Below are positions 4,072 to 12,297 of a DNA stretch of 44,450 nucleotides, in pieces. Under the pieces are notes generated by a model. The model was given only the letters and a program-made list of their open reading frames with translations, ran no database searches and had not been told where the DNA came from. Position 1 is the first letter of the stretch. Each line of letters begins with the position of its first letter. The DNA comes from Escherichia phage vB_EcoP-101101UKE1, in sequence record MZ234012.1. One strand, given 5' to 3'. A program made the position numbers and the translations under genes.

Positions 4072-6060
4072 ATGGCTATTATTCAGAATGTACCGTGTCC
4101 TGCCTGTCAAAAGAATGGACATGATATTACTGGCAACCATCTTATGATATTTGACGACGGAGCAGGATACTGTAACCGTGGTCACTTCCATGATAACGGT
4201 AAACCTTATTACCACAAGCCAGAGGGTGGCATCGAGATAACCGAATTGCCTATTACTGGCAATATCAAATATACACCTTCTCAATTCAAAGAAATGGAGA
4301 AGGAAGGGAAGATAAGCGACCCTAAGCTACGCGCCATCGCTCTTGGTGGTATGCGTATGAAAGACCGTTGGGAGGTCATGAATGAGCAAGAAAGGGCAGA
4401 CCAAGAAGCAGAGTGGAAACTTGATGTTGAATGGTTCCTCACGCTTAAGCGTAAGAACCTTGTTTCCCGACACATTCGCGGCGACATTTGCGCATTGTAT
4501 GATGTACGTGTTGGGCACGATGAAGAGGGTAGAGTCTCACGGCATTACTATCCGCGCTTCGAAAAAGGTGAGCTAGTAGGCGCTAAATGTCGCACATTAC
4601 CTAAAGATTTTAAGTTTGGTCATTTAGGTAAACTCTTTGGTATGCAAGATCTTTTCGGTATGAATACTTTGTCTCACGTGTTAGACAAGGGAAGACGAAA
4701 GGATTGCTTGCTTATTGTGGGTGGGGAACTGGATGCACTAGCAGCGCAGCAGATGCTCCTTGATTCTGCCAAGGGCACTAAGTGGGAAGGCCAGCCATAC
4801 CATGTATGGTCTGTCAACAAAGGCGAGTCTTGCCTTGAAGAGATAGTGCAGAACCGTGAGCATATCGCCCAATTCAAGAAGATTATATGGGGTTTTGATG
4901 GAGATGAGGTAGGGCAGAAGCAGAATCAGCAAGCGGCTCGCCTGTTTCCTGGCAAATCCTATATCCTTGAATACCCCTCTGGTTGCAAAGATGCTAACAA
5001 GGCATTGATGGCTGGCAAGGCTAAAGAATTTGTAGATGCATGGTTTAATGCCAAGTCATCTGATGAAGTCTTTGGTAGCCAGATTAAATCTATCGCATCT
5101 CAAAGGGATAAGCTCAAGGCTGCACGTCCAGAGCAAGGACTATCATGGCCTTGGCCTAAGCTGAACAAGGTAACGCTAGGTATTCGTAAGAATCAGCTTA
5201 TCATTGTAGGTGCAGGGTCTGGTGTAGGTAAGACTGAGTTCCTTCGTGAAGTAGTTAAGCACCTCATTGAAGAACACGGTGAATCTGTAGGCATCATTTC
5301 TACAGAAGACCCGATGGTCAAGGTGTCCCGTGCTTTTATCGGCAAGTGGATTGATAAGCGTATTGAGTTGCCGCCAACCAACGACCCGAAAGAAGATGGA
5401 TACCGTGAGGTGTTCGACTACACCGAGGAAGAAGCTAACGCCGCCATTGATTATGTAGCTGATACAGGTAAGCTGTTTGTAGCTGACCTAGAGGGTGACT
5501 ATTCGATGGAAAAGGTAGAGCAAACTTGCCTAGAGTTTGAGGCTATGGGTATTTCTAATATCATCATTGATAACTTAACGGGGATTAAATTAGATGAGCG
5601 TGCTTTTGGTGGGAAGGTTGGTGCACTTGATGAATGCGTCAAGCGGATTGGTACTATCAAAGACCGACACCCGGTTACTATATTCCTTGTATCACACCTT
5701 ACACGTCCTCCGGCAAACCGTACCCAACACGAAGAAGGTGGCGAAGTTATCCTTTCTGACTTCCGAGGCTCAGGCGCTATCGGATTCTGGGCATCTTACG
5801 CCTTGGGGATTGAGCGTAATACAAGAGCTGAAACGCTTGACGAAAGGACTACCACGTACATCTCATGTGTCAAAGACCGCGACCAAGGTATCTGGACTGG
5901 AACCAAGGTCATGCTTAAGGGTGACATTCAAACCGGACGTTTAATGGAACCACAAGCCCGTACTAAGTCATTTGACACCGGCGAAGCAAGGCAACAAGAA
6001 GTACCGGATTTACCGGACACTATAGAAGAGACTAACTTCGATGAAGAAAGTGAGTTCTGA
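4072..6060 (+). CDS. DNA primase/helicase (T7 gp4-like), 662 aa
   Basis: N-terminal zinc ribbon CPACQKNGHD...CNRGH, helicase Walker A GAGSGVGKT, and an acidic C-terminal tail ending DEESEF. Confidence 0.92.
   Translation: MAIIQNVPCPACQKNGHDITGNHLMIFDDGAGYCNRGHFHDNGKPYYHKPEGGIEITELPITGNIKYTPSQFKEMEKEGKISDPKLRAIALGGMRMKDRWEVMNEQERADQEAEWKLDVEWFLTLKRKNLVSRHIRGDICALYDVRVGHDEEGRVSRHYYPRFEKGELVGAKCRTLPKDFKFGHLGKLFGMQDLFGMNTLSHVLDKGRRKDCLLIVGGELDALAAQQMLLDSAKGTKWEGQPYHVWSVNKGESCLEEIVQNREHIAQFKKIIWGFDGDEVGQKQNQQAARLFPGKSYILEYPSGCKDANKALMAGKAKEFVDAWFNAKSSDEVFGSQIKSIASQRDKLKAARPEQGLSWPWPKLNKVTLGIRKNQLIIVGAGSGVGKTEFLREVVKHLIEEHGESVGIISTEDPMVKVSRAFIGKWIDKRIELPPTNDPKEDGYREVFDYTEEEANAAIDYVADTGKLFVADLEGDYSMEKVEQTCLEFEAMGISNIIIDNLTGIKLDERAFGGKVGALDECVKRIGTIKDRHPVTIFLVSHLTRPPANRTQHEEGGEVILSDFRGSGAIGFWASYALGIERNTRAETLDERTTTYISCVKDRDQGIWTGTKVMLKGDIQTGRLMEPQARTKSFDTGEARQQEVPDLPDTIEETNFDEESEF
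6008..6030 (+). promoter_or_regulatory. phage RNAP promoter (ATTTACCGGACACTATAGAAGAG)
   Basis: Exact consensus, embedded in the 3' end of the primase/helicase coding sequence. Confidence 0.75.
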
Positions 6061-7380: not shown

Positions 7381-7585
7381 ATTAAGCAAGGTTTGCTCTT
7401 GCGGTAAAGGTTATCGCAGTCGTATTGATGGTAAGTGTGGGCATTGCAGGTCTAAGAAAGAGGCTGCTTTGTTTGATAAGTACCACAATGAATTAGCATA
7501 TAACTATCCTCATCTAACACCTAATTCTTTATTAGGACTTGGTTATAGGGTTAAATACTTTGGAGCAATCTATGAAATCAATTGA
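7367..7585 (+). CDS. small zinc-ribbon protein (CxxC...CxxC)
   Basis: Internal start MKTIKLSKVCSCGKGYRSRIDGKCGHCRSKK with RBS agagg. Its 3' end overlaps the DNA polymerase start. Confidence 0.4.
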   Translation: MKTIKLSKVCSCGKGYRSRIDGKCGHCRSKKEAALFDKYHNELAYNYPHLTPNSLLGLGYRVKYFGAIYEIN

Positions 7586-10118
7586 TTGGAAGAAGGAGGC
7601 AGAAGGTCGTATCCTCGTGATGGATGCGGAAGCTAAAGGACTCCTTGACGCTATCCGATATGGACACCGTGAAGATGTGCATATCATTTGCTGCATGGAT
7701 TTGCTTACTACCGAGGAGTTTCTCTTCTTTGACCCGTATGAGATGCGTGACCCTGAAGCAAGAGAACGCCTGAAGGAATGGGAAGGTCATCAAGACGGAA
7801 CCTTGGTTGATGGTGTTAACTTCCTGAAGCATTGTGAAGCTATTGTGTCACAGAACTTACTAGGGTATGACGGACTTCTCTTTGAGAAAGCATTCCCTGA
7901 TATTTGGAAGGGCTTTAACTATACCGAGAAGCGCGGTAAGGGCAGACTCCGTGCTGACCTGTGTCCGGTGCGAGTCATGGATACGCTGGTGATGAGTCGC
8001 CTGTTAAACCCCGATAGACGCCTTCCTCCGCAAGCATATGCCAAAGGTATGGGTAACGTCGCCCCTCACTCAATTGAGGCGCACGGCATCCGTATAGGCC
8101 GCTATAAACCGGAGAACGAGGACTGGTCTAAACTAACTGACCACATGGTTCACCGTGTACGTGAGGACGTGGCGATTGGTCGTGACTTGTTCCTCTGGCT
8201 CTTTAACGGGGAATGGATGGAGCACAAACGCCGTGGCGTGAATAAACGCACTGGCCTAGGTATTGAGACAGCCTTCCACATGGAGTCCATTGTGGCGCTG
8301 GAGATGAGCCGTCAGGCAGAGCGTGGATTCCGTCTGGATATTGACAAAGCACTAGCGCGATGCGAAGAACTGGACGCTAAGATTGACGAGACAGTCGCAG
8401 CGTTCCGCCCTCACATGCCTATGCGTATCAAGTCTAAGCCTTTTAAACCGGAAGAAAAGAATGAAGTATGCCAACGCGCAAATGAGTATGGAGCTAGCAA
8501 CAATATACCTACTGTCCTTGACCCCTCACACTTTCTTCATGCCGAGAGACGAGGAGATCGCAAGACAGTATGGAGTGTCACTACTAAGTCTGGTGATTGG
8601 TCGGCTAGTGTCAAGAAAGACTTTCCTCACCTTAGAGGAAACCGTAATGACACGCCAAGCATCAAGTGGATTGGCGCTTACTCGCCTGTTACTTTCGAAG
8701 AGATTCCCTTGGGTAACAGGGATACAGTTAAGCAAGTGCTCTATGATTATGGATGGAAAGGTGTTGAATTTAACGATACCGAGCAAGCGCATCTCGATGA
8801 GCACGGAGTGTTACCCAAACCTTGGAGTGGTAAGATAAATGAAAAGTCCCTTACTTTATGGCAAGAGAGAGCCGCACGTGAAGGTAAAACAGTCCCTGAT
8901 TGGTGCTTGGGTATCGCTGCATGGTACATACTCGTATCCCGTCGTGGTCAGATACTCAACCGTGGTGACGTTGAAGCCTTCAACGAGAAGGGAACGTGGC
9001 CCTCGCAGGCTGGTGTACGAAAGTGTCGCGGCCTTGTACCTGTAGCATTCAACAAGGAGCTAGGAATCAATGCGCAGCAATACTACGAGAGGTACGGATG
9101 TTGGCCTACGTCTGACAAAGATGATGGAGAGTGGCGTGTTCCAGCTGTTGCTATTAGCATTGGCACTTCTACGTTCCGTATGCGTCATCGTAACGTGGTC
9201 AATATTCCTGCCCGTGGCTTGTATCCTTTACGTGATTTATTCATAGCAGGGAAAGGCAAGCTAATCCTTGGTTGTGACGGTGCAGGTCTTGAACTGCGTG
9301 TCCTGTCTCACTTCATGAATGACCCTGAGTACCAAGAGATTGTACTGCACGGTGATATTCATACGCATAACCAGATGAAGGCTGGTCTTCCTAAGCGTGA
9401 TATGGCGAAGACGTTTATATACGCCTTCCTCTATGGCTCTGGTATAGCCAACCTTGCAGCAGTATGTGGTGTTACTGAGGAAGAAATGAAGGAAGTTGTG
9501 GCAAGATTCGAGATTGAACTGCCGTCTCTTGCACGTCTTCGTGAGAATGTTATCGCACAAGGTAACAAGTTTGGCTACCTGCAAGCACCTGATGGGCATT
9601 GGGGTCGCATCCGCATGTCTGGTGGTGAACTTAAAGAGCACACGATGCTTAACGTATTACTCCAGATGACTGGCTCTTTGTGTATGAAATATGCATTAGT
9701 CAAGGCATTTGCAGTAATGCGCAAGGAAGGTGTAGCCTTGGATGCTATGGGAAATCCTTGTGGTGTGGCTAACGTGCATGATGAAATCCAGATGGAAGTT
9801 CCTGAAGAGGAGGTCTTGTATCTTAACTACGACCTACCTTTCACCTTAGATGGGTTCGAAACAGAGAAGGCTGCCGTGAAGGCAGTGTTCGATGCAGAGG
9901 AGAAACGTGTTCATGTGGATTCTGAAGGACGTATGTGGTCTGCTGCAAACCTCGTTAGTGTTGATGCTGATGCTGGTGTATTGCATTGCCAGCGCCGTTA
10001 TCACCGTGCAGGTCATATCATTGCCGACGCCATGACTTGGGCAGGGCAGTATCTGAAGATGCGTTGCCCGATGGCAGGCGAATATAAGATTGGCGCAAGT
10101 TGGAAGGAAACACACTGA
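7572..10118 (+). CDS. family A DNA polymerase with 3'-5' exonuclease domain (T7 gp5-like)
   Basis: Exo I motif ILVMDAEAKG, pol motif A DGAGLELRVLSHF, motif B KTFIYAFLYG and motif C VHDEIQ. Start chosen at ATG 7572 (RBS tggag); the track ORF opens at 7539. Confidence 0.92.
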   Translation: MKSIDWKKEAEGRILVMDAEAKGLLDAIRYGHREDVHIICCMDLLTTEEFLFFDPYEMRDPEARERLKEWEGHQDGTLVDGVNFLKHCEAIVSQNLLGYDGLLFEKAFPDIWKGFNYTEKRGKGRLRADLCPVRVMDTLVMSRLLNPDRRLPPQAYAKGMGNVAPHSIEAHGIRIGRYKPENEDWSKLTDHMVHRVREDVAIGRDLFLWLFNGEWMEHKRRGVNKRTGLGIETAFHMESIVALEMSRQAERGFRLDIDKALARCEELDAKIDETVAAFRPHMPMRIKSKPFKPEEKNEVCQRANEYGASNNIPTVLDPSHFLHAERRGDRKTVWSVTTKSGDWSASVKKDFPHLRGNRNDTPSIKWIGAYSPVTFEEIPLGNRDTVKQVLYDYGWKGVEFNDTEQAHLDEHGVLPKPWSGKINEKSLTLWQERAAREGKTVPDWCLGIAAWYILVSRRGQILNRGDVEAFNEKGTWPSQAGVRKCRGLVPVAFNKELGINAQQYYERYGCWPTSDKDDGEWRVPAVAISIGTSTFRMRHRNVVNIPARGLYPLRDLFIAGKGKLILGCDGAGLELRVLSHFMNDPEYQEIVLHGDIHTHNQMKAGLPKRDMAKTFIYAFLYGSGIANLAAVCGVTEEEMKEVVARFEIELPSLARLRENVIAQGNKFGYLQAPDGHWGRIRMSGGELKEHTMLNVLLQMTGSLCMKYALVKAFAVMRKEGVALDAMGNPCGVANVHDEIQMEVPEEEVLYLNYDLPFTLDGFETEKAAVKAVFDAEEKRVHVDSEGRMWSAANLVSVDADAGVLHCQRRYHRAGHIIADAMTWAGQYLKMRCPMAGEYKIGASWKETH

Positions 10119-10234
10119 TGGATAGGCTTGACATTGTTTACCTATTCTTCACTTTCTTTCTTACACTCCTTATGCTTGCTTGTTATGGGAGTATGAGACT
10201 AGATATATCTGATGAAGAAGAGGGTTACGACTAA
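10118..10234 (+). CDS. small hydrophobic peptide (38 aa, MDRLDIVYLFFTFFLTLLMLACYGSMRLDISDEEEGYD)
   Basis: ATG overlaps the polymerase stop (TGATG). One predicted transmembrane helix plus an acidic C-terminus. Confidence 0.3.
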   Translation: MDRLDIVYLFFTFFLTLLMLACYGSMRLDISDEEEGYD

Positions 10235-10332
10235 TGCAAACTGCTTTTATTATTCTTGGTATCATATTATTTATGGTAGTATTCTGGGCTTTCTCTGGCA
10301 TTGACCCAGATTGTGATGGTAACTACGACTGA
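10234..10332 (+). CDS. small hydrophobic peptide (32 aa, MQTAFIILGIILFMVVFWAFSGIDPDCDGNYD)
   Basis: TAATG-coupled to the preceding peptide, with the same architecture (TM helix plus acidic tail ending YD). Confidence 0.3.
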   Translation: MQTAFIILGIILFMVVFWAFSGIDPDCDGNYD

Positions 10333-10391
10333 GTTATACTCAAGGTCACTTACGAGTGGCCTTTATGAATAACTTAACTGGAGGAAATATA

Positions 10392-10949
10392 ATGAATGAA
10401 CTGAACACTAAGATGCTCAAGAAAGTTTATAATCTTGTATATAGTATCACGGGCCTACACTTCTACCCTGTAGGCGGTGCGGTTCGTGACACCCTGTACG
10501 GATTAACACCTAAAGACTATGATATGGTGTTGCCTGTAGGGTCTATGGCAGATTCTCAGGCGCACGAAATCATGGAAAATATCTCTGAAGAGATGGCAAT
10601 TATGGGATTTAGTACCAAACTCTACCAATCATACGGTATCAATTTAGGTTATGAAATCAACCCTACCTCTTTTCAGGCTATGTTCCTTAGCTGCATGAAA
10701 GTGCAGATGCGTAATTGCCAACTTGATTTGCTTCTTTCTAAGGCTGAAACCATCCAAGATCATGTACGTAAGCACGATTGCAATATGAATATGGTGTGGT
10801 TCGATGGTAAAGATATCAAGTGGGAGCACGGCGGTGTTACTCCTTTCGTTCCTGTGTTAGAGTTCAACCCTGACGGATGTGATCGTCGCATTGCTTACAT
10901 GGACAAGAAGCGCCATGAACTTATCCGTCACAAATTAATGCATCTTTGA
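10392..10949 (+). CDS. minimal Pol-beta-superfamily nucleotidyltransferase with CCA-adding-enzyme/poly(A)-polymerase head motif
   Basis: Motif VGGAVRDTLYGLTPKDYDMV (GGxVRD followed by DxD) matches the class II CCA-adding enzyme head signature. RBS ggagga 7 nt before ATG 10392. Protein is only ~185 aa. Confidence 0.6.
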   Translation: MNELNTKMLKKVYNLVYSITGLHFYPVGGAVRDTLYGLTPKDYDMVLPVGSMADSQAHEIMENISEEMAIMGFSTKLYQSYGINLGYEINPTSFQAMFLSCMKVQMRNCQLDLLLSKAETIQDHVRKHDCNMNMVWFDGKDIKWEHGGVTPFVPVLEFNPDGCDRRIAYMDKKRHELIRHKLMHL

Positions 10950-10970
10950 TTTACCGGACACTATAGAAGG
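10949..10970 (+). promoter_or_regulatory. phage RNAP promoter (ATTTACCGGACACTATAGAAGG)
   Basis: Consensus match. Confidence 0.75.
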
Positions 10971-11035
10971 AAGTCCTAGGTAATCTAGGTTTATAAGGTA
11001 GTATAGGTAATTAAGTAAATATAGGAGATATAAAC

Positions 11036-11413
11036 ATGTCTATGGTAACTACTCTGGTATTTGTAGCTCAATACTTTCGTGGTCTGGCTAATAAGTTCAA
11101 GTCCAAGGCTATCAAAGCTATTGAGTCTCGCATCGAGGCAGTACAGGCAGAGCAAGTTAAAGTTGAAGAACATCGTAGTTCTCAAATGATTGACTGCCAT
11201 AACCGCTACTATGCATCTCGTGATGACCTTAATGCACGCCAAGTCAAAGAGGTTGAAGAGATGCTGGCACGTCACCAGCAAGAGCGCGACAGCCTGAAAG
11301 CTGAATTTGAAGAGAACAAGGCATCCATCGCCCTTGTACATCAAGCCGCATCTGACAACCTGAAGAAAGAGATTGTTATGCTGGAAATTGAGTTAGACAA
11401 CCTGACCAAATAA
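11036..11413 (+). CDS. hypothetical membrane-anchored coiled-coil protein (125 aa)
   Basis: RBS aggag. N-terminal hydrophobic segment MSMVTTLVFVAQYF followed by heptad-like charged sequence. Confidence 0.45.
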   Translation: MSMVTTLVFVAQYFRGLANKFKSKAIKAIESRIEAVQAEQVKVEEHRSSQMIDCHNRYYASRDDLNARQVKEVEEMLARHQQERDSLKAEFEENKASIALVHQAASDNLKKEIVMLEIELDNLTK

Positions 11414-11490: not shown

Positions 11491-12297
11491 ATGGCACGTG
11501 GTGATTTTGATTTTGGTGCTCAGGTTACTAAAGCTGAAGGTAAGGTTTTTAAGAACCCTGAAGTTGGTGATCATGAAGCAGTAATCTCTGGCATCATTCA
11601 TGTGGGTTCCTTCCAAGATATCTTTAAGAAAGGTAATACCACTGAAGTTAAGAAGCCAGCAAACTTTGTTCTTGTTAAGATTGTACTGATGGGTGACGAT
11701 GACAAGAACGAAGATGATTCTCGCATGGAACAGTGGATGGCTGTGCCTCTGAAGTCTGGTGACAAGGCAACCTTGACTAAGTTCCTGAATGCAGTTGACC
11801 CTAAAGAGCTGCTTGGTGGTTTCGATGACTTCATCGGTGAATGCCTGACTGCAACTATGGTTGGCTCTGGCGACAAGAATGATGATGGTACTTTCAAGTA
11901 TGTTAACTGGAAAGGCTTTGGCGGTATGCCTGATAAGTTGAAGAAGCTTGTACTGGCTCAGGTAGAAGAGGAAGGTCTGTCTATGACAGGTCATATCACC
12001 TTCGACAAGCTGACCAAAGAAATCCTTGATGACATTCCTGCTAACTTGGTGCGTCAATACTTCCTTAATGAAACACCTCGTGGTAAGAACCTGTCTGTTG
12101 CTGGTTCTCACGTAGAAGCAATCATTAAAGCTGCTCGTGAAGAAGACCCAGAGTGGAAGAAAGCCAAGAAGAAAGATGACGAGGATGCTACTCCAGCTAA
12201 TCGTAAGTCTCTGGATACTGGCGAGTCTGTTCCACAGGAAGTACCTGAAGCAGAAGATACTCCTGCACCGGAGATGGATGAGGACGCGGAATATTAA
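11491..12297 (+). CDS. putative single-stranded DNA-binding protein (gp2.5-like), 268 aa
   Basis: Own promoter, strong RBS aggag, highly biased codon usage, and an acidic C-terminal tail ending DEDAEY (T7 gp2.5 has an acidic tail ending in F). The assignment is tentative. Confidence 0.45.
   Translation: MARGDFDFGAQVTKAEGKVFKNPEVGDHEAVISGIIHVGSFQDIFKKGNTTEVKKPANFVLVKIVLMGDDDKNEDDSRMEQWMAVPLKSGDKATLTKFLNAVDPKELLGGFDDFIGECLTATMVGSGDKNDDGTFKYVNWKGFGGMPDKLKKLVLAQVEEEGLSMTGHITFDKLTKEILDDIPANLVRQYFLNETPRGKNLSVAGSHVEAIIKAAREEDPEWKKAKKKDDEDATPANRKSLDTGESVPQEVPEAEDTPAPEMDEDAEY

Follow-up and report, generated by a model that had tools for sequence, protein, structure and literature searches.

Within the window, by which is meant the whole stretch of 44,450 nucleotides from Escherichia phage vB_EcoP-101101UKE1 (MZ234012.1), positions 10,392 to 10,949 encode a protein of 185 amino acids (21 kDa). 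Sequence profiles and a predicted structure support its assignment as the head of a class II nucleotidyltransferase of the Pol-beta superfamily. The gene belongs to a phage family that is already known and annotated but uncharacterised. Its best reading, a tentative one, is the upkeep of the 3' ends of tRNA (CCA or only the terminal A), including the work of a generic RNA 3'-end nucleotidyltransferase. The window is essentially a near-complete Vectrevirus genome (Autographiviridae, Molineuxvirinae; SP6/K1E/K1-5 group), and an earlier, preliminary description of this DNA was right in placing it in a T7-supergroup phage and exact in the limits and strand of the open reading frame (ORF). The queried region is 99.9% identical to that of Escherichia phage vB-Eco-KMB47 (OR424385), in which the same gene is labelled 'hypothetical protein'.

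Fold, family and catalytic residues

The fold and family assignment holds because a predicted Pol-beta-like fold is found together with matches to Pfam and other profiles, the two checks that the preliminary description had proposed. The protein matches PHROG_1614 ('nucleotidyltransferase') over residues 19-174 (E-value 5e-39, 135.6 bits), and the Pfam family PolyA_pol (PF01743) over residues 25-84 only, with 23.5 bits, narrowly over the gathering score of 23. When a family profile of 39 sequences was compared by hhalign with 17 canonical class II heads, taken from the retrieved loci and from Escherichia coli Cca, the two aligned over residues 8-150 of the window protein with a probability of 98.1% and an E-value of 7.5e-14. 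Taken together, these scores lie well outside what chance would give. The NCBIfam CCA and pcnB models (PRK13296, PRK10885, PRK13297, and TIGR02692 among them) reached 11-25 bits against cut-offs of 305-702, in the motif A region only, and a sequence search of the PDB returned weak matches to CCA-adding enzymes as well as to poly(A) polymerase (PAP), also via motif A. Neither PF12627 (PolyA_pol_RNAbd) nor PF13735 (tRNA_NucTran2) had a match in the 185 residues.

The AlphaFold2 model, built from a 24-sequence alignment, is compact and confident (pLDDT 90.9, pTM 0.86) and shows an alpha/beta domain and, after it, a long C-terminal helix. The predicted fold is a Pol-beta-type alpha/beta head with class II structures as its nearest neighbours: all of the top 34 Foldseek matches in the PDB are class II enzymes, at modest TM-scores of 0.40-0.48 (normalised to the query). 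Among the PDB structures searched with Foldseek there is no solved phage homologue. Against CD-NTases and MenT, the protein scores only about half as high as against the class II enzymes.

Two other memberships were tried. A place among the MNT or NTP_transf_2 proteins (the HEPN-MNT antitoxins) finds no support, as the motif is GGxxRD rather than of the GS type and no PF01909-type profile was matched, PolyA_pol being the only Pfam family found at E-values up to 10. A defence or anti-defence nucleotidyltransferase family is rejected for the lack of any match to the PADLOC defence models and for the halved fold scores to CD-NTases and MenT. Toxins of the MenT and AbiEii type belong to another branch of the superfamily, do not carry GGxxRD, and come with cognate antitoxins, whereas the phage gene stands alone.

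The same results bear on the idea that the target is not a nucleic acid but a protein, a small molecule, or a nucleotide immune signal, and that the gene product serves as a counter-defence or host-takeover factor. MNT antitoxins, which AMPylate HEPN toxins, provide a model for the protein target, and a small, acidic, cassette-like protein would suit such a role. However, the pairing of GGxxRD with DxxxN is specific to the class II enzymes that extend RNA 3' ends and is not a feature of MNT proteins, antibiotic nucleotidyltransferases, or CD-NTases; together with the missing NTP_transf_2 and PADLOC matches and the low structural scores to those groups, this makes a target of that kind unlikely.

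Residue conservation was counted in 148 representatives of 150-235 amino acids, each standing for one cluster at 50% identity. In the protein (...FYPVGGAVRDTLYGLTPKDYDMV... around the signature), both parts of motif A are found (Table 1). The preliminary description had recognised VGGAVRD and DYD but had counted nine residues between them; the spacer from D33 to D42 is of eight (TLYGLTPK), the same spacing as in E. coli Cca (GGAVRDALLGLPVKDRD). G28, G29, D42, and D44 are invariant (148/148), and D33 and R32 are kept in 144 and 134 representatives, respectively. D112, on a predicted strand of the model, is the natural candidate for the third metal-binding carboxylate and is unpaired with the canonical glutamate in the hhalign alignment. 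Residues K127-H128-D129-C-N-M-N133-M lie opposite RRDLTINA of motif B; D129 is conserved in 139 representatives and N133 in 137, while position 128 is occupied by F in 97 and by H in 40.

The C-terminal helix is probably the counterpart of the first neck helix, the carrier of motif D, since F158, R166, residue 169 (Y/R), and M170 line up with the motif D stretch F..EDPLRxLRxxRF in an hhalign alignment of low confidence that includes a one-residue deletion. In this alignment P160-D161 stand opposite E-D, C163 opposite the templating arginine, and R166 opposite the next arginine of EDPLRxLR, so that the templating arginine itself is not evidently retained. The earlier statement that neck, body, and tail are all lacking is thus correct for body and tail, but a strictly head-only protein is not what is found, given the weakly aligned helix at 164-184. 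Judged from the sequence, the metal site appears intact and the NTP site partly retained, and the specificity for nucleotide and acceptor is not readable from the canonical motifs.

An active enzyme is predicted because the catalytic residues are kept, the carboxylates and the NTP-site residues being conserved down to about 20% identity, and because dN/dS among close relatives is 0.11-0.19, values that point to purifying selection. The opposite view, a decaying or catalytically dead remnant of a CCA enzyme with no enzymatic role, could appeal to a length below that of the canonical enzymes and to the loss of the gene from most close relatives. Against it stand the three conserved carboxylates and the NTP-site residues, the low dN/dS, the compact and confident model, and the size, which is that of nearly the whole family (see below); a dead remnant is extremely improbable.

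Distribution and relatives of the family

An exhaustive profile search yielded 211 clusters at E-values up to 0.001, and nearly all of the best 150 of them are of 160-230 amino acids, which indicates that the small size is the norm of the family and not a truncation. Members were seen only on phage records and phage-sized contigs. With tblastn, the gene was found in 199 phage records, nearly all of Autographiviridae, from phages of Pectobacterium, Klebsiella, Vibrio, Proteus, Aeromonas, Erwinia, Providencia, and Yersinia, with few of Escherichia; many of these records already carry the label 'nucleotidyltransferase'. Structure matches in BFVD give the same picture of the distribution. In bacteria, a pattern-based scan of one genome per species found no members of the small family: the hits were canonical full-length Cca-type enzymes, with at most 31% identity over the head, and the other rows covered the motif A stretch only.

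Of the longer representatives scanned for fused domains, two are ordinary CCA/PAP enzymes and the rest have no extra Pfam domain. The profile of the small family also matches, once or at several places, within three very long proteins, P0084 (1455 amino acids), P0089 (1347), and P0122 (1312). P0106 (397 amino acids, match at 202-392) has an N-terminal extension of about 200 residues, and in this extension the scan found no Pfam domain.

The enzyme has been noticed before in phages of this type, so that the novelty claimed for it in the preliminary description was overstated. Evseev et al. (2020, PMC7693777) reported a 'tRNA nucleotidyltransferase' for 37 out of 46 Autographiviridae of Pectobacterium and for about 60 among the more than 500 other members; they modelled it on bacterial enzymes and described it as a putative tRNA nucleotidyltransferase, leaving its role open. 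This discussion is repeated in PMC9145550.

The closest known proteins are those of the window gene's own family, the small Autographiviridae nucleotidyltransferases of PHROG_1614, among them those of Proteus phage PM116 (gp16), the Pectobacterium phages PP47 (gp29) and PPWS2 (gp24), Vibrio phage VP93 (gp16), and the Drulisvirus VLCpiA1m. Their identity to the window protein ranges from 53% (PM116) to about 27%; they share its conserved residues and the length of 160-230 amino acids, and their genes, like this one, usually adjoin that of the DNA polymerase. The bacterial class II CCA-adding enzymes (E. coli Cca; Bacillus stearothermophilus, 1miv; Thermotoga maritima, 3h37) are of about 365-415 amino acids, as opposed to 185 for the phage protein, in which body, tail, HD domain, canonical EDxxR motif D, and the motif B arginine pair are missing. 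E. coli PcnB (3aql) and the A-adding enzyme of Aquifex (4wby, 1vfg), with 16-18% identity, have neck, body, and leg regions for RNA binding that are absent here. A bacterial stand-alone protein of 191 amino acids, Streptococcus pneumoniae NP_344798.1 (PDB 2la3), is described as a 'CCA-adding enzyme head domain' protein; it resembles the phage protein less than the full-length class II enzymes do, in its structure as well as in its sequence (14% identity). We know of no reported function for it.

Candidate functions

The gene product is best pictured as an active, metal-dependent, template-independent nucleotidyltransferase that would descend from the class II family of CCA-, A-, and CC-adding enzymes and poly(A) polymerase I. 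Its remaining core would comprise GGxxRD-x8-DxD, D112, the motif-B-like DxxxN, and one helix with R166. In terms of chemistry, one or a few NMPs would be transferred from NTPs onto a free RNA 3'-OH. As for the biological use, the enzyme might, more speculatively, preserve the 3' ends of host tRNA in the course of infection, in addition to the Cca of the host, an activity that would matter when these ends are eroded or attacked. The tRNA-end reading follows from the ancestry of the protein and from the fact that many immune toxins target the CCA end: the toxin-antitoxin and defence toxins that act there include MenT and the toxSAS enzymes CapRel and FaRel2 (PMC11559606). One of them, MenT1, is described as a nucleotidyltransferase that modifies the tRNA 3'-CCA end (PMC11559606), with solved chains of about 184-195 residues, which means that the 3' ends of tRNA are within reach of a small nucleotidyltransferase that stands alone. 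The full-length CCA-adding enzymes of jumbo phages have been read as a means of tRNA-end repair (PMC7824862). The uses that the preliminary description had suggested, restoring tRNA 3' ends damaged by defence nucleases or acting on another target, are plausible. Being acidic and lacking both body and tail, the phage protein probably binds the 3' end alone or needs a partner, and it should lack the built-in ruler that stops the canonical enzymes at CCA.

Several points weigh against tRNA-end support. From the side of need, ARAGORN found zero tRNA genes in the window, whose 44.45 kb amount to essentially the entire genome; the host possesses a Cca of its own; and gammaproteobacterial hosts encode the CCA in their tRNA genes. 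From the side of the protein, the arginine pair of motif B, the motif for recognition of the NTP ribose and triphosphate, is replaced by K/H-type residues; the canonical motif D (EDxxR), an amino-acid template for the choice of CTP and ATP, is absent; and neither Pfam nor the model reveals any further neck, body, tail, or HD domain in the 185 residues. The protein is also acidic and has no obvious RNA-binding platform. The whole family is acidic (median pI 5.1, with 96% of the members below 7), although this reflects mainly that no basic RNA-binding region has been added, since canonical heads are often acidic too. Moreover, the gene is dispensable, as most close relatives do without it; the searchable literature contains annotation mentions only and no functional study, biochemical or genetic, of any family member; and tRNA repair leaves the steady position of the gene beside that of the DNA polymerase unexplained. 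The ARAGORN result, in addition, excludes a separate proposal, the maturation of phage-encoded CCA-less tRNAs.

A different use of the same chemistry would be that of a PAP-like tailing enzyme, not specific for tRNA, which would put untemplated A or mixed tails on host or phage RNAs and alter their stability, for example by directing host mRNA to decay by a 3'-exonuclease. The best structural match of the protein is indeed a PAP. PcnB itself carries the RNA-binding regions mentioned above, which are absent here; a tailing function is possible but on the doubtful side.

The neighbourhood of the gene raises a further possibility. Of 18 Autographiviridae loci, which come from about ten genera, 17 have it within about 750 nucleotides of the gene for a family-A DNA polymerase; this sample comprises the window (7572-10949) and the loci L002, L125-L133, L045-L051, and L134, and four divergent members used as queries gave 0-1 loci. 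The gene is found downstream of the polymerase gene in Molineuxvirinae, Slopekvirinae, and Maculvirus, and upstream of it, often overlapping its start codon, in Pektosvirus PP47, Melnykvirinae, and Corkvirinae. In the exception, L134, it is 3 kb away.

This constancy on either side of the polymerase gene suggests a role linked to replication, in which the enzyme would make, extend, or cap oligoribonucleotide primers, modify the 3'-ACCA ends of tRNA, which T7 replication proteins are able to employ as primers, or extend DNA 3' ends. A head without tRNA-binding domains suits small acceptors, and the loss of the motif B arginines could relax the selectivity for the sugar. The 3'-ACCA end of tRNA matches the primers of T7. 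According to the citing statement in PMC3897749, T7 gp5.5, which is encoded right after the T7 DNA polymerase gene, binds tRNA and masks the priming of T7 replication by tRNA. In phage PP47, the polymerase gene is flanked by a gp5.5-like gene and the nucleotidyltransferase gene. Nonetheless, these phages share a collinear gene order and accessory genes are known to gather in this region, so that the adjacency may be historical; the 18 loci are phylogenetically non-independent, and the adjacency is a lead rather than proof of a functional link. The distant gene of L134 and the replication of most Vectreviruses without the gene also speak against it, and to our knowledge no replisome uses a class II nucleotidyltransferase. 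A direct part in replication is, on balance, quite unlikely.

Apart from tRNA-end support, the head-only enzymes of T7-like phages might serve the phage as a specialised instrument for the 3' ends of short RNA, rather than for tRNA housekeeping. This alternative has a modest chance of being correct, and two settings are conceivable. In the first, the enzyme would make, extend, or block CCA-type oligoribonucleotide or tRNA primers for the adjoining polymerase and the primase-helicase. In the second, it would counter defence by rebuilding or re-tailing tRNA 3' ends modified by immune systems, such as the toxSAS pyrophosphokinases, the MenT-type nucleotidyltransferases, or the HEPN RNases that trim 3' ends.

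The cassette and its biological meaning

As the preliminary description had noted, the gene follows the DNA polymerase gene and two coupled micro-ORFs (Table 1), and its accessory character is borne out by its variability: the gene is rare in Vectrevirus, being present in about 8 of about 90 close relatives. The window protein is matched at 90% identity or more in only 8 records, as opposed to about 90 for the flanking DNA. Alignment to the gene-less phages LL11 and fTuEco01 reveals that a cassette with the ribosome-binding site (RBS) and the ORF (approximately 10377-10947) replaces a spacer of about 25 nucleotides. It is a one-gene cassette, set between a conserved hairpin and a phage promoter. 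The same slot holds the gene in other Molineuxvirinae (PM116, K13PH07C1S, and VyarbaL), and for this reason the pattern fits an old gene that most Vectreviruses have lost, or one that came back through recombination between the conserved flanks. A recent foreign origin was considered and finds no sign in base composition, the GC content of the gene being 42.3% against 45.1% for the window (24th percentile).

Table 1. Position of the nucleotidyltransferase gene, its motifs and the neighbouring elements in the window
Feature	Position	Strand	Remarks
Nucleotidyltransferase coding sequence	10392..10949	+	185 aa plus stop; class II CCA-adding / poly(A)-polymerase-type head and one C-terminal helix
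Motif A, part 1, P26-VGGAVRD-33 (GGxxRD)	10467..10490	+	aligns to GGAVRD of canonical enzymes
Motif A, part 2, D42-Y-D44 (DxD metal-binding carboxylates)	10515..10523	+	both D in 148/148
D112, probable third catalytic carboxylate	10725..10727	+	139/148; predicted strand 110-116; role suggested by Pol-beta architecture
Motif-B-like H128-DCNMNMVW-136	10773..10799	+	probable counterpart of RRDxTINA; placed on RRDLTINA by hhalign
C-terminal helix, residues 164-184	10881..10943	+	DSSP on the model; near-invariant R166 (nt 10887-10889), 141/148
Shine-Dalgarno GGAGG	10380..10384	+	7 nt 5' of ATG, direct reading; belongs to the inserted cassette
Family-A DNA polymerase gene	7572..10118	+	OR424385 annotation mapped on the window
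Two coupled micro-ORFs (38 and 32 aa)	10118-10234, 10234-10332	+	TGATG/TAATG overlaps; phrog_15860, phrog_4539
RNA hairpin, left boundary of the cassette	10330..10376	+	minimum free energy -17.5 kcal/mol, z -3.5; 0/200 shuffles fold as well
SP6-type phage promoter, right boundary of the cassette	10948..10972	+	core GACACTATAGAAG at 10957-10969; conserved in gene-less relatives

The hairpin, directly 3' of the micro-ORFs, is kept in relatives without the gene. As a possible RNase III processing site or terminator-like element, it would control the expression of the nucleotidyltransferase. The promoter core GACACTATAGAAG occurs ten times in the window, always on the plus strand, against 0.07 copies expected, and these ten cores map the transcription units of the phage RNA polymerase. 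The outer limits of the promoter given in Table 1 and its likeness to the SP6 consensus are what we take them to be from our own reading. Cores of the form GACACTATAGAA(G/C) on the plus strand start at 6016, 6707, 10957, 11420, 12566, 15719, 20922, 33586, 36123, and 37790. Because the cassette sits between the hairpin and the downstream promoter, the gene is the last cistron of the transcription unit that holds the DNA polymerase gene. With its own RBS, it would be expressed together with the middle DNA-metabolism genes by read-through from promoters 5' of the polymerase gene, provided that transcription proceeds past the hairpin.

The neighbouring genes give no functional hint, since all belong to PHROGs of unknown function or doubtful name. 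Each micro-ORF product has one transmembrane segment ('TMD N in C out' in the annotation of phage LL11) and an acidic C-terminus (...EEGYD or ...DGNYD), and Vectreviruses conserve both micro-ORFs. Three relatives from IMG/VR, L045, L047, and L048, have only 63 nucleotides between the polymerase and nucleotidyltransferase genes, with no room for micro-ORFs. Downstream, the conserved 125-amino-acid product of 11036-11413 (phrog_7450) is called 'polysaccharide chain length determinant protein' in PHROGs and RefSeq (LL11 and others) and 'hypothetical protein' in KMB47; the former name, on so short a protein, has the look of an annotation that was propagated. Phage fTuEco01 (locus L005, 2575-2871), which is without the nucleotidyltransferase, has an extra ORF of 98 amino acids one gene further downstream, between the homologues of 11036-11413 and 11491-12297, a second variable slot in the region.

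For the window itself, the outcome is a better annotation, from 'hypothetical protein' to PolyA_pol-head nucleotidyltransferase of PHROG_1614. The interest of the gene lies mainly in the combination of a widespread, compact enzyme and a suggestive link to the DNA polymerase. A conserved relative of the CCA enzymes is carried by about 200 sequenced T7-supergroup phages, many of which are candidates for therapy against Klebsiella, E. coli, Proteus, Vibrio, and Pectobacterium. Knowledge of the acceptor and nucleotide specificity would reveal how large a part of a class II enzyme catalysis requires once the tRNA-binding scaffold is gone, whether the 3' ends of RNA are mended or rewritten by phages as they infect, and why the gene stays beside that of the DNA polymerase.

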